A DNA stretch of 64,000 nt, from sequence record PQ471516.1. The stretch is one strand, 5' to 3'. Shown here in pieces: positions 31,933 through 35,658 of this stretch. The stretch comes from Escherichia phage Turkey5. The stretch's first letter is position 1. Each line of letters begins with the position of its first letter. A model generated the notes under the pieces. It made no database searches. It was not told the DNA's origin and worked only from the letters and a program-made list of their open reading frames with translations. The position numbers and the translations under genes were made by a program.

Positions 31933-32259
31933 ATGTTCGCACTACGTAATAAAAAGACTCACCAAATCGTTGATTATGAATGGGTTTACTATTCCAATAC
32001 TGGCGGCCCTGAGATGATTCTGTGCCATGACGGTGAAGAACCATTTGTAACAAAACGCCGTGAAGCACTAGAAGAGATCATCGAAGAATACAATACCAAT
32101 GTAAATGCTGAAAATGGTCCTTATGACGATGGCCTACGTGTAGAGTTACCTGATGCTTATGAACATGGTAACACGGATTCTTTACGTATAGAGTTGCCAG
32201 ATGCTTATGAATCTGGTAACATGGATTCTTATGAGATTGTAGAACTGGTGGTTAAGTAA
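31933..32259 (+). CDS. hypothetical protein, MFALR family
   Basis: N-terminus MFALRNKK and C-terminus YEIVELVVK shared with 34116 and 34912 ORFs. Confidence 0.6.
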   Translation: MFALRNKKTHQIVDYEWVYYSNTGGPEMILCHDGEEPFVTKRREALEEIIEEYNTNVNAENGPYDDGLRVELPDAYEHGNTDSLRIELPDAYESGNMDSYEIVELVVK

Positions 32260-32636
32260 TGCGTGTAATGTATAAAGTAACTGAGCTAAACAAGCGTCTG
32301 CTTAAGATTTCTATGTTCGAGGATAAAGAGTCTCTCTATAACTTTAAACGTGCTGTAGAGGCTGCTATGCATCTACAGAAGCTTAAGGATAAAGGGTGTA
32401 TTATTCTAGAGAATAATTCAGTACTGGATGGTGACTTCAAAGTAGCCTTTGATGAAGCAGAAGATGGAACACTTTCTATGCCACGATTGGGTACGGGTGA
32501 CATGACAGTGTGGATTGGCTTTACTATGGGAAACAAGAAAGGAACTGTATACGTTGATGAAGACGAGTTGAAAGACAGCTTCAAAAACTTATCGTACCTC
32601 GAACCACAATATTCTCATAAATTAAGTTTATTTTGA
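32259..32636 (+). CDS. hypothetical protein
   Basis: ORF track; ATGA overlap. Confidence 0.6.
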   Translation: MRVMYKVTELNKRLLKISMFEDKESLYNFKRAVEAAMHLQKLKDKGCIILENNSVLDGDFKVAFDEAEDGTLSMPRLGTGDMTVWIGFTMGNKKGTVYVDEDELKDSFKNLSYLEPQYSHKLSLF

Positions 32637-32637
32637 G

Positions 32638-32665
32638 TTGACAATATAGTTCAGTACTGTATAAT
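32638..32665 (+). promoter_or_regulatory. sigma70-type promoter (TTGACA-16-TATAAT, TTCAGTACTG in spacer)
   Basis: TTGACA 32638-32643, TATAAT 32660-32665. Confidence 0.6.
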
Positions 32666-32712
32666 GTTTACCAAGGGGATGAGTTGTTCGTCCCTACAAT
32701 CGAGGAACTACT

Positions 32713-33270
32713 ATGATTACTTTTAATAAAACTGCGAACCACATCCATGAAATCTTTATCAACGGTCACAAAGCTGGCCTTATCCGTTTACTGGCACATC
32801 ATCCTGATGTCGTAGTAAGTGATAACGAACCAAAAGATTGGCGTGTATTTTTCTTTGGAAAGTACAGTGATTTTCAAGTTTCTTCTTTAAAGGGCATTCG
32901 TTCTGTTTGTTCCTTAAATGAAATTAAAGAAAAACTGGAAGGAGCATTGAAAACAAATGTCAATGACATTCTCCCAGCAGAAAACTTTGATGTAAAAGGT
33001 TATGCATTGGCTTATATGAAAGATGGTACTGTTCAGTCTATCAGTACTGAATATGGATGGCACTGGACTGAGTATTTTACTTACGGTTCTAGTAATGTTT
33101 TGATGGCCTCGCGTAGTAAATTAGAAGAAGTAATGTCCATTATTATTGCTCAGGAACGTGAATCTTCTGACAAACCAGAAATGTGGAGTTCAACTTACAT
33201 GGATCGCATTGACTATGTTATGATGACTCCAATCTTTAATACTGAATACTACAATACATTAACTAAGTGA
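32713..33270 (+). CDS. hypothetical protein
   Basis: ORF track, 185 aa. Confidence 0.6.
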   Translation: MITFNKTANHIHEIFINGHKAGLIRLLAHHPDVVVSDNEPKDWRVFFFGKYSDFQVSSLKGIRSVCSLNEIKEKLEGALKTNVNDILPAENFDVKGYALAYMKDGTVQSISTEYGWHWTEYFTYGSSNVLMASRSKLEEVMSIIIAQERESSDKPEMWSSTYMDRIDYVMMTPIFNTEYYNTLTK

Positions 33271-33277
33271 GACTCTA

Positions 33278-33454
33278 ATGAAACTACGTACACGCAATCG
33301 TCTGATGGATGCACTGTATCACGAACAGCTTTCACTGAATGAAGTAAAACGTCAGCTAATGGCTGCCTATCATTTACCTGCTCGTACTGCTAAACAGCGT
33401 TCTAAAGAACTCCTAGAAGAAGCTATTGAGTACTGGGAATCTGATTCGTACTAA
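33278..33454 (+). CDS. small hypothetical protein (58 aa), paralog of 35476-35658
   Basis: MKLRTRNRLMDALYHEQLSLNEVK.. matches MKLKRYDRNRIMDALYREEISLNKVK..; below track cutoff. Confidence 0.5.
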   Translation: MKLRTRNRLMDALYHEQLSLNEVKRQLMAAYHLPARTAKQRSKELLEEAIEYWESDSY

Positions 33455-33482
33455 TTGTCACGTTAATTAAGTGAGGCGATAA

Positions 33483-33734
33483 ATGAAAATTTTATTAGTT
33501 CTAATACTACTAATTGTTTTACCATTTACGTTAGTATCTCCTGAACTTGCATGGAATGTGTTTGTGTACTTACTATGTACTATGGTGGTAAATGGTATCT
33601 TGTTCTTAGTTCTATTCATAAATGGAATAGGACACGGTGGAGGATGGACCAGTACTGCTGATATTGTACATAAAACCACTATGTCTTTATTTGTAGTGTG
33701 GAATTTATTCTGGACTTGGTTTGTGTTCTTCTAA
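33483..33734 (+). CDS. small membrane protein
   Basis: ORF track; hydrophobic. Confidence 0.5.
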   Translation: MKILLVLILLIVLPFTLVSPELAWNVFVYLLCTMVVNGILFLVLFINGIGHGGGWTSTADIVHKTTMSLFVVWNLFWTWFVFF

Positions 33735-33742
33735 TTAAAAAT

Positions 33743-34114
33743 ATGAATATAGATTTGAAAGGTGCAACCCGAACTGTCATACTCATTGGGGAATATGCTA
33801 TCAAGATTCCAACCTTTAAAAGTTGGAAGCTATTCTTAACAGGGATGATAGCTAACCTCAATGAACGTTCGTGGATGCAGTACTCCAAGCGTAGTGATAC
33901 TGGTATCTGTCCTACGTTGTGGTCATCATGTACTGGACTAGTAACTGTACAGAAACGTTGTAAGCCAGTACAACATAGGGGTTTATTTTGGGTGGAGTTG
34001 TGTGCTTTAGCATTGAATTCAGAGTTAAGTACTGACTTCTTTTATTCAGATGCGAAGCCAGAAAACTTTGGTTATCTGAATGGTAAGTTAGTTAAACTTG
34101 ATTATGGAGATTAA
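33743..34114 (+). CDS. hypothetical protein
   Basis: Track ORF 33698 trimmed to first ATG after upstream stop. Confidence 0.5.
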   Translation: MNIDLKGATRTVILIGEYAIKIPTFKSWKLFLTGMIANLNERSWMQYSKRSDTGICPTLWSSCTGLVTVQKRCKPVQHRGLFWVELCALALNSELSTDFFYSDAKPENFGYLNGKLVKLDYGD

Positions 34115-34115
34115 T

Positions 34116-34385
34116 ATGTACGCACTGTATAATAAAGAAAAGAAACGATTTGCTAAGGTTGAAATTTCGATTGATACCTTTGATATGTTGGAGTACTGTA
34201 TTGTGACGGACCTATATGCTAACTTGTATTACGTTCTTGATGACGTATCAGTACTGCAACGATTGCTTGAGAATTCCAAAAGTCAATGCCAGGGCATCCA
34301 TGATGGTTCATCTTATGAAACACCTGAGTGTTCCTACGGCTATCTGGACGGGTATGAGATTGTGAAGTTGGGGATTGTTGAATAA
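34116..34385 (+). CDS. hypothetical protein, MFALR family
   Basis: Trimmed to ATG after GGAGA; N-terminus MYALYNKEKK, C-terminus YEIVKLGIVE. Confidence 0.55.
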   Translation: MYALYNKEKKRFAKVEISIDTFDMLEYCIVTDLYANLYYVLDDVSVLQRLLENSKSQCQGIHDGSSYETPECSYGYLDGYEIVKLGIVE

Positions 34386-34391
34386 AGAAAA

Positions 34392-34424
34392 GGGTTGACT
34401 ACGGTCAGCCCTTTTTGCTATAAT
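34392..34424 (+). terminator. stem-loop cassette (terminator hairpin with embedded -35, then TATAAT)
   Basis: GGGTTGAC-tacg-GTCAGCCC, TTTTTGC, TATAAT 34419-34424; near-identical to 29724 copy. Confidence 0.6.
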
Positions 34425-34452
34425 CATTTCATCGAAACGAGAGGATGAATAC

Positions 34453-34887
34453 ATGACACGCATTAACTTAGTACACGTTAAAGAACTTGCTGACCAACAT
34501 CTGATGGCTGAATATCGTGAACTCCCACGTGTATTTGGTGCTGTACAAAAACACGTTCAAGCACGTAAGCGTGTACGTGATTTCAAAATTAACAGTACTT
34601 ATCTGTTAGGAACAGGTCACGTCACATTTTTCTACGACAAACTACTGTACTTACAGAAGCGACATGTAGATATCGTGAATGAATGTCTCCGTCGTGGTAT
34701 GAAGATTCAAAATACTGACGTAAACGACATTAGCGACTTCCCTGCTGAGTTTTGTAATGACTATGTACCAACGCAGTCCGAGATTAAAACATCGCGTGAG
34801 CGTTTGATTGAGAAGCTCCAGATGAAGCCAATGTGGTACAAATTCACTGATGTTGAATTGCCAGTTTATTATGTTGAGATGATTTGA
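34453..34887 (+). CDS. denV: endonuclease V (pyrimidine-dimer DNA glycosylase/AP lyase), T4 DenV homolog
   Basis: [49 protein letters not shown] matches T4 DenV along its length; SD GAGAGGATG. Confidence 0.95.
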
Positions 34888-34911
34888 TAATTCATTCTAG
34901 AAGGAAATTAT

Positions 34912-35152
34912 ATGTTCGCACTACGCCACAAAGAACTTCATGTGTATTGATACACAATGGGATTGCTTTGGTAGTACTGAAGTATTGGAAGAACACGCTG
35001 AGAACGTCTTTGTTGTTAGTGAACGTTCATTGTTGGAAGCACTAATTGAGGACTTCAATGCTGGTACTAATGCATTCTCTCTGAACTTTCCGATTGTTGC
35101 AGATCCAGAAGCATTTGTTATGTACGAAATTGTAGAACTTACTGTGAAATAG
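34912..35152 (+). pseudogene. frameshifted MFALR-family gene
   Basis: ATG 34912 gives MFALRHKELHVY then stop; rest of the homolog (..YEIVELTVK) continues in the +1 frame from 34940. Confidence 0.45.
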
Positions 35153-35169
35153 TATCATTGGAGATAACC

Positions 35170-35466
35170 ATGAAAGCACTGACCGCCGTAGAAATCAAAG
35201 AGCAATACAAAGATTTATTCGAGTTTAAACACAACGGTGAAGAATTCAAACGTAGTAGTACTGTACGTGACTTCTTGAACAAACTCTTCTGTACTAAGTT
35301 CAAAGCTGCGTACATTACTATGCCTGAGCGTACTTCAAGTGCAGAAGATATCAAGAAGTTCGGTTTAGGTTGGGATGCACAATCAATCATCCTGGTGAAT
35401 GCAGATGAAGAGCTAGTGTACTTGACTAACTCCGAGTGGGCTTCTTTCATGTATCTTCGTAAATAA
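35170..35466 (+). CDS. hypothetical protein
   Basis: Trimmed to ATG after GGAGATAACC. Confidence 0.55.
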   Translation: MKALTAVEIKEQYKDLFEFKHNGEEFKRSSTVRDFLNKLFCTKFKAAYITMPERTSSAEDIKKFGLGWDAQSIILVNADEELVYLTNSEWASFMYLRK

Positions 35467-35475
35467 GGAACTATA

Positions 35476-35658
35476 ATGAAACTGAAACGTTATGATCGCA
35501 ATCGTATTATGGATGCTTTGTATCGTGAGGAAATTTCACTCAATAAGGTGAAAGTGTACTTTATGTTAGAAGGTCGTATTCCAGTACGTAAAGCTAAACA
35601 GTTAGCTATTGAACTGCTGAATGAAGGTATTGAGTACTGGCATTATGACGGATATTGA
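35476..35658 (+). CDS. small hypothetical protein, paralog of 33278-33454
   Basis: ORF track; shared MDALY..EYW motifs. Confidence 0.55.
   Translation: MKLKRYDRNRIMDALYREEISLNKVKVYFMLEGRIPVRKAKQLAIELLNEGIEYWHYDGY

Follow-up and report, generated by a model that had tools for sequence, protein, structure and literature searches.

Two Versions of One Gene Module, Probably Joined by Lateral Exchange at Promoter Stem-loop Cassettes, in the Jumbo Phage Turkey5

Results

Gene Organization of the Locus

The 64,000-nucleotide stretch of Escherichia phage Turkey5 analyzed here (sequence record PQ471516.1, termed the window, with positions counted from its first letter) contains two related gene modules on either side of the glycosylase gene denV, together with short repeated stem-loop cassettes that carry promoter elements. 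Megablast of positions 31500-36200 matched 42 phage records, nearly all of them jumbo phages of ~350 kb, and places the window in the 121Q/PBECO4 group of jumbo coliphages, genus Asteriusvirus. The closest complete genome is vB_EcoM_JNE01 (JNE01), with 97-98% identity across 2856-27884 and 37835-44001; the identity drops to 92-93% across 28012-34386, and 34859-37834 is missing from JNE01. Phage EJP2 shares only three similarity blocks (≥150 bp, ≥80% identity) with the 64-kb window. Short open reading frames (ORFs) on the plus strand are densely packed in the region and accompanied by consensus σ70-type promoters, a layout expected for an early region transcribed by the host RNA polymerase, and judged from its sequence the window appears to represent the early, variable gene region of a 121Q/JNE01-like Asteriusvirus. 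The ratios of nonsynonymous to synonymous substitution rates (dN/dS) of the small ORFs, compared with their 121Q, JNE01 or EJP2 orthologs, are 0.06-0.27, indicating real genes under purifying selection; no ratio is given for the 98-amino acid gene, which is identical in EJP2.

Module 1 (31933-33454) and module 3 (34912-35658) have the same order of an MFALR family gene, one or more middle genes and a gene for a protein of 58 or 60 amino acids, all on the plus strand. Module 1 is composed of MFALR copy 1 (31933..32259, 108 amino acids), a 125-amino acid gene (32259..32636, phrog_7672, dN/dS 0.13 against 121Q), a hairpin-less σ70-like consensus promoter (32638..32665, TTGACA-16-TATAAT), a 185-amino acid gene (32713..33270, phrog_22186, dN/dS 0.17) and the 58-amino acid gene in its 121Q/JNE01-type version (33278..33454, phrog_38182, E = 5.2e-38, dN/dS 0.09). 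In module 3 the MFALR gene is broken into a 12-codon remnant (34912..34950) and a remainder in the +1 frame (34940..35152, 70 amino acids from ATG 34940), corresponding to 82 amino acids in intact relatives, and is followed by the 98-amino acid middle gene (35170..35466, phrog_26698) and the 60-amino acid gene in its EJP2/Munch-type version (35476..35658, phrog_38182, E = 1.2e-18). No similarity is detectable between the 98-amino acid gene and the 125- and 185-amino acid genes of module 1. Between the modules lie MFALR copy 2 (34116..34385, 89 amino acids) and denV (34453..34887, 144 amino acids, plus strand), encoding a pyrimidine-dimer DNA glycosylase of the T4 endonuclease V (DenV) family (PF03013, E = 1e-15; phrog_1183, E = 2.6e-59), which has a short C-terminal form compared with the 171 amino acids in 121Q and serves here as a landmark gene only.

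The MFALR genes are found where the earlier note on this DNA had reported three ORFs with shared termini, and the relationship extends over their full length. All three proteins match the complete phrog_8563 profile (E = 6.8e-7 for copy 1, 8.6e-25 for copy 2 and 3.7e-11 for copy 3 with its frame repaired) and align end to end, sharing M[FY]AL.NK at the N-terminus, V..L..L[LI]E in the center and P...YEI[VL].L at the C-terminus. A hidden Markov model (HMM) of the family finds exactly three members among the 965 stop-to-stop ORFs of the window. BLASTP relates repaired copy 3 to copy 1 (E = 8e-10) and to copy 2 (E = 3e-6), copies 1 and 2 matching each other with only E = 0.008. Repeats remain detectable at the DNA level only in the 58/60-amino acid pair and at the very ends of the MFALR genes; the copies are therefore old and diverged. 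Copy 1 is a JNE01-type allele (isoelectric point (pI) 4.3) whose ortholog in JNE01 has 92 amino acids (dN/dS 0.25); it contains an in-frame tandem duplication (32135..32230, plus strand, 2 × 48 nt, 88% identical, adding 16 amino acids) that is missing from the JNE01 ortholog and from the 356-kb metagenome contig L012 (ERZ27268760 k141_107635). Because the exact 108-amino acid protein is found in three read-archive contigs, this duplication is a lineage feature and not an error. Copy 2, which starts MYALY, is the ortholog of 121Q gp216, with 88 of 89 amino acids identical and a dN/dS of 0.06.

The family is small: in a collection of 5.8 billion proteins only 9 of its clusters were found, and those with names all come from Escherichia jumbo phages or Escherichia coli assemblies. 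Its proteins are strongly acidic (pI 4.3-4.5, net charge -7 to -15). The AlphaFold2 model (predicted local distance difference test score 71.5) has a predicted β-β-β-α-β fold with strands at both the N- and C-terminal segments, and pairing of these terminal strands may account for the conservation of both ends. A structural search with the model returned no significant neighbor, and an AcrIC8-like anti-CRISPR fold was considered and rejected, as significant similarity in structure or sequence was not found. The 58- and 60-amino acid proteins share 55% identity (E = 5e-19), both match phrog_38182 over its full length, and their genes are 71-75% identical over 57-75 nt; the protein is a predicted three-helix bundle with generic structural matches only. 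An early accessory or host-takeover role is assumed for the MFALR and 58/60-amino acid genes solely from their genomic position.

Distribution of the Modules in Related Phages

Tblastn with the 60-amino acid protein finds 40 phage records with exactly one place in each. The 58-amino acid type is present in 34 of these, including 121Q and JNE01, at 53-57% identity to the query, and the 60-amino acid type in 6, namely EJP2 (96.7%) and, at ~71%, the Salmonella phages Munch, 7t3, SE_PL and PHA46 and the Klebsiella phage fENko-Kae01. The 82-amino acid protein likewise finds one place per record, which in 121Q is gp210 (52% identity), located in the slot of window copy 1. HMM scans show two MFALR genes, one in slot 1 and one of the gp216 type, with one 58-amino acid gene in 121Q, Turkey3 and JNE01, and one MFALR gene with one 60-amino acid gene in EJP2-type loci; three MFALR genes together with two 58/60-amino acid genes are seen only in the window and in L012. 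The placement of the module also differs, lying upstream of denV in 121Q/JNE01-type phages and, in EJP2-type phages, 3' of a kinase-like gene and two more genes, and of denV where it is present. Munch has the same module order as the EJP2 type without denV. The duplicated modules proposed in the earlier note are thus related in both their MFALR genes and their 58/60-amino acid pair; their origin by duplication within the genome is made unlikely by the single 58/60-amino acid version per phage (40 of 40).

The second module lies within a patch of 3.45 kb (34384-37835) that matches L012 and EJP2-type contigs at 96-99% identity and has JNE01-like flanks, the JNE01 block terminating at 34386 and the EJP2-type blocks beginning at 34384. 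The patch contains denV, the 82-, 98- and 60-amino acid genes, a 527-amino acid gene and an 88-amino acid gene. L012 is the metagenome contig closest to the patch region, with 98.9% identity over window positions 34383-40152 and an 8-bp indel accounting for the only gaps.

Structure of the Stem-loop Cassettes

Ten cassettes are located within 17.5-37.8 kb of the window and none within 42.7-64 kb, and copies are present in every related locus surveyed. A 26-nt core, AAAGGTTGACTTCGGTCAGCCTTTTT, occurs in 8 copies (≤3 mismatches) in the window, all on the plus strand, compared with 0 expected, and two further GGTTGAC hairpins are at 17565 and 26274. The cassettes are ~60-80 bp long. Their hairpin, GG(G)TTGAC-TTCG-GTCAGCC(C), has a G/C-cored stem of 7-9 bp and a TTCG loop, stands between an A-tract and a T-tract, and has folding energies of -9 to -20 kcal/mol (z = -3 to -6.6). 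A -35 box (TTGACT) is placed within the 5' arm; most copies have a -10 box (TATAAT, TATTAT or TATACT) 17-18 bp further on, the cassette at 27831 being an exception. In 55 distinct cassette sequences, drawn from the window and from related loci, the 5' arm does not vary, and changes in the 3' arm (GTCAGCC, GTCAACC, GTCGGCC, GTCGACC and GTTGACC, with A/G opposite T and C/T opposite G) always preserve the pairing. The cassettes are intergenic between plus-strand ORFs and are arranged along the direction of transcription, with a stop codon upstream and a Shine-Dalgarno site and start codon downstream.

The plus-strand cassette at the left patch junction (34384..34440) has its hairpin at 34387-34416 (-19.7 kcal/mol, z = -6.6), with the -35 box TTGACT in the 5' arm at 34395-34400 and the -10 box TATAAT at 34419-34424, followed by a leader. 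Further cassettes, also on the plus strand, are present at the edge of a variable gene slot (35664..35743, with a conserved leader and Shine-Dalgarno site), at a slot boundary (37327..37366) and at the right patch junction (37770..37849), where JNE01-like similarity is back from 37835. Segments 35666-35743 and 37772-37849 share 95% identity along 78 nt, a stretch that takes in the leader, the Shine-Dalgarno site and the ATG, and the proteins downstream (527 and 257 amino acids) are ~42% identical over the first ~45 residues, so that the cassette homology extends into the 5' ends of the genes. In Salmonella phage Munch, the homologous module is flanked by the same cassette. Terminators predicted by ARNOLD were placed at the corresponding intergenic sites by the annotators of G17, and the Munch record annotates terminators there too. 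An Rfam search returned no family for the cassette, only tRNAs and a group I intron. A second, hairpin-less promoter class is present at 350, 1461, 30189, 32638 and 63320 and has a common spacer and -10 motif, TTCAGTACTG(T/A)TA(T/A)AAT; two of its copies are predicted to drive tRNA genes.

Cassettes and Synteny Breakpoints

Similarity blocks to JNE01, EJP2 and ten contigs end or begin at 34384-34389, 35700-35720, 37327, 37771-37835 and 38622, which bears out the earlier suggestion of cassette-mediated shuffling. The accompanying claim, that the module boundaries themselves coincide with cassettes, applies to 34384 and 35664, which carry one, and fails at 31921-31933, 33454-33483 and 34887-34912, which do not. 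Of 16 breakpoints against JNE01 and EJP2, 6 fall inside hairpin cassettes, which cover at most 2.2% of the region (rough binomial P = 9e-7 against a null of the whole region), and 9 inside promoter elements, which cover at most 9% (P = 3e-6 on the same basis). JNE01 has a 1.5-kb insertion of four ORFs exactly at 34386/34389, and its similarity halts within the 3' end of denV (34858) and restarts at 37835, within the leader belonging to the 37776 cassette. The EJP2 blocks cover 34901-35720, 37327-37826 and 37771-38622 with edges in cassettes or in the promoter at 38624, except for the start of the first block at 34901. The overlap of two of these blocks at 37771-37826 shows that an insertion in EJP2 is flanked by direct cassette repeats; overlapping blocks at 37771-37826 and 19005-19031 represent direct cassette or promoter repeats around insertions in relatives.

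Ten independent contigs carrying the 82-amino acid gene all break at 34384, 35700-35720, 37327 and 37771-37826, and the gene content between these points differs. The slot upstream of the 82-amino acid gene holds denV, a CapR-domain gene or no gene, and the slot downstream of the 60-amino acid gene encodes 527, 79+466, 78+365, 139+78+123 or 43 amino acids or is empty. Directly after denV in both 121Q (locus 5530-5570) and JNE01 (locus 10760-10800) is a half-cassette that retains the 5' arm and TTCG loop without the 3' arm or -10 box, which fits an old crossover within the loop of the hairpin.

The Broken MFALR Gene of Module 3

The 0 frame of copy 3 reads MFALRHKELHVY*, and homology picks up again in the +1 frame. 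The break had been described as a +1 frame change after 12 codons; it is real, and alignment to the intact ortholog defines it as an 8-bp tandem-repeat deletion after codon 8, the window keeping a single ACAAAGAA unit (34928-34935) against a tandem pair in relatives. The EJP2 counterpart of 34901-35720 is 97.3% identical and contains an intact 82-amino acid ORF (MFALRHKETKNFMCIDTQ...), the extra ACAAAGAA unit being the sole length difference. A 927-bp read-archive contig (L006, SRR17836607) matching 34800-35718 has the same denV/MFALR gene junction as the window and differs by one single nucleotide polymorphism and the 8-bp indel, leaving the gene intact. The intact 82-amino acid protein is indexed in 57 assembly-collection blocks, and two ACAAAGAA units are present in 10 of the 10 loci fetched. 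The broken allele was not found elsewhere in pattern scans of viral, metagenome and genome contigs, in an exact-protein look-up (which also gave no record of its 70-amino acid product) or in an E. coli genome search. With the gene intact in all relatives examined and the broken allele found nowhere else, the lesion is private to the window sequence, and the precise removal of a single repeat unit suggests replication slippage. In L012 the 82-amino acid gene is intact and the imported 60-amino acid gene has a premature stop, Y28* (L012 5573-5755), and in the nine non-hybrid loci both genes are intact.

Neighboring Features

Upstream of MFALR copy 2, the 123-amino acid ORF at 33743-34114 aligns with the phrog_4301 profile over just positions 40-167 of its 225 and gave no match in a Pfam search. 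Kinase-like motifs (DAKPEN and DYG) are seen by eye, and its counterparts in 121Q (gp205 type) and Munch, of ~213-224 amino acids, are annotated as protein kinase, suggesting it may be a shortened paralog of a T7 gp0.7-like kinase. Arrays of predicted membrane-protein families (~110-125 amino acids) are located on either side of the modules at 30538-31921 and 39022-41447, the genes at 30538, 30870 and 31571 being mutually similar (E down to 2e-9). At the start of the window, a group I intron (1685-1998, Rfam RF00028, 95 bits) lies within a cluster of 6-7 tRNA genes (219-4443) and is followed by a 234-amino acid ORF (2063-2767); in JNE01 this region differs by a 2.7-kb insertion and includes a gene annotated as an HNH homing endonuclease. 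The minus strand of 42724-58420 encodes 13 tandem paralogs of ~264-447 amino acids, most of them starting MLPFVRLFDYGN. Related loci have similarly placed minus-strand 392-amino acid genes with WD40_RLD/RCC1 Pfam matches, a shared family with the window paralogs not being established, and JNE01 has an extra copy of the minus-strand paralog with a 110-bp overlap at its flank, a signature of unequal crossing-over. Eleven tandem plus-strand paralogs of ~60 amino acids at 59385-62668 each end ...L.L.[FY][KR][YH].

Discussion

The arrangement around denV is probably the result of a JNE01-like backbone and a cassette-bounded patch of the EJP2 lineage having brought both lineage versions of one module together. 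Module 3 is 97% identical to EJP2, a phage otherwise too divergent for vertical descent, and so probably arrived by lateral exchange. The simplest reading is that two crossovers, one in each of the cassettes at 34390 and 37776, would have placed the EJP2-lineage patch in the JNE01-like backbone, leaving the two versions of the module 3 kb apart in one genome. The cassettes would split the region into small transcription units and also serve as recombination homology, allowing the intervening genes to be gained, lost or exchanged in blocks. The sequence comparisons show the breakpoint pattern directly, and the recombination mechanism that we infer from it is taken from the proposal for promoter early stem-loop (PeSL) elements of T4-like phages.

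The main alternative for the two modules is duplication in the genome itself, in which unequal crossing-over at cassettes doubled the MFALR-middle-58-amino acid segment in one lineage and the copies then diverged. Both families do recur in the same order and orientation inside 3.7 kb with cassettes close by, and the tandem paralog arrays of the window grow in this way, the extra minus-strand copy of JNE01 with its 110-bp overlap being an example. However, the copies are just 27-55% identical and have far closer counterparts in other lineages, module 3 in EJP2 (97%) and module 1 in JNE01 (93%). The middle genes show no relationship to each other, and both 58/60-amino acid versions occur together in 0 of 40 database genomes, making this explanation unlikely. 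Several points weigh against the exchange of a patch at cassettes. An ancient duplication followed by reciprocal loss is possible, if less parsimonious. No intact cassette is present where module 3 begins on its left side (34887-34912), just a possible -10-like remnant, GATAAT, and copy 1 switches between 121Q- and JNE01-type alleles at 32226 without a cassette boundary. An intergenic-only null would give weaker values in the breakpoint test, and the P values overstate specificity because viable indel edges are intergenic and promoters fill much of the intergenic space. The cassettes themselves resemble intrinsic terminators overlapped by σ70 promoters, both activities being putative. A sequencing or assembly artefact at 34928-34935, with an intact 82-amino acid gene in the real genome, would in turn remove the lesion in copy 3.

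Such an artefact is suggested by the 12 of 12 other copies that are intact (EJP2, the ten assembly loci and L006, which has one single nucleotide polymorphism over 919 bp) and by the failure of the broken allele to turn up in any other collection searched. Yet nearly all intact copies came from searches with intact proteins, a bias towards the intact allele, and the loss of exactly one 8-bp unit is a classic product of replication slippage that is atypical for a base-calling error. The close relative L012 has its independent nonsense codon in the neighboring 60-amino acid gene, from which it follows that inactivating changes do occur in the module of hybrid genomes. The artefact is a less likely explanation that still carries some weight. 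A functional frame change, in the form of programmed ribosomal frameshifting or of a phase-variable repeat acting as a switch for copy 3, is by comparison highly improbable. The repeat is a tandem direct repeat, and some re-initiation is conceivable at ATG 34940, which overlaps the end of the 12-codon ORF, but only two repeat units are involved, no other allele length is seen in any assembly, and the product started there would miss the conserved N-terminal strand of the predicted fold. The shifted state is kept in no relative, all of which encode a continuous 82-amino acid ORF, and a canonical slippery heptamer is not evident at 34925-34940 (sequence read by eye); a programmed frameshift was rejected on the lack of a conserved shifted arrangement and slippery site. 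Most likely, the frameshift in copy 3 arose recently by replication slippage and inactivated a copy that had become redundant. One imported gene is broken in each of the hybrids (the window and L012), which hints at relaxed selection on redundant copies in a sample that is tiny and biased to the intact 82-amino acid protein.

PeSL cassettes have been described in the T4-like phages RB49/phi1, T4/PST and KVP40/nt-1 (Arbiol et al. 2010, PMC2839356; Comeau et al. 2014, PMC4122927). The window cassettes share with them a σ70-type early promoter joined to a G/C-cored stem-loop between A and T runs, an intergenic position followed by a Shine-Dalgarno site and start codon, and a location at insertion, deletion and replacement breakpoints of close relatives with half-elements at old junctions. 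PeSLs are also repeated many times in a variable early region, to which the ten copies over 17.5-37.8 kb of the window may correspond. The placement of the -35 box in the 5' arm agrees with one of the listed PeSL subclasses, defined by overlap of stem-loop and -35 box (Arbiol et al. 2010, PMC2839356), and the nt-1 consensus, A3-4 G3 loop C3 T3-4, is very similar to the window cassettes. Differences are that the carriers here are a 121Q-like jumbo myovirus (Asteriusvirus) and the Salmonella Munch group, outside the T4-like subfamily, and that the hairpin sequence in the window is unusually uniform (GGTTGAC-TTCG-GTCAGCC). For RB49/phi1, promoter/terminator activity and mini-circle formation have been shown experimentally; for the window cassettes, promoter and terminator activity are predicted from sequence. 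With a promoter and overlapping stem-loop, an oriented intergenic position and a location at breakpoints, the window cassettes appear to be PeSL-type elements, in a jumbo-phage genus for which no earlier description was found in the searchable literature, whose coverage is incomplete. The mosaicism is of the ordinary phage kind already described for T4-like phages. Tandem paralog expansion in jumbo phages has been noted for phAPEC6/121Q (PMC7247149), and the window is similarly rich in paralog arrays (minus-strand, ~60-amino acid and membrane-protein families); the module pair differs from these as two lineage versions juxtaposed by lateral exchange.

A more far-reaching proposal, which we regard as speculative and rather improbable, is that the cassettes of 121Q-like and Munch-like jumbo phages form an active exchange system resembling an integron and run by homologous recombination, which would circulate small early genes among divergent Escherichia, Salmonella and Klebsiella jumbo phages; the acidic MFALR proteins would then be interchangeable anti-defence or host-takeover effectors with copy number and allele type tuned by exchange. 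The frameshift in copy 3 is itself of little importance. The comparison cautions for annotation that apparent phage paralogs can be two lineage versions of one gene joined by recombination. The ten contigs that differ slot by slot at the same cassettes provide a concrete, testable map of exchangeable gene slots, and the PeSL idea, in which terminator/promoter cassettes act as recombination hot spots that shuffle accessory genes, would be extended to a separate group of ~350-kb jumbo phages.

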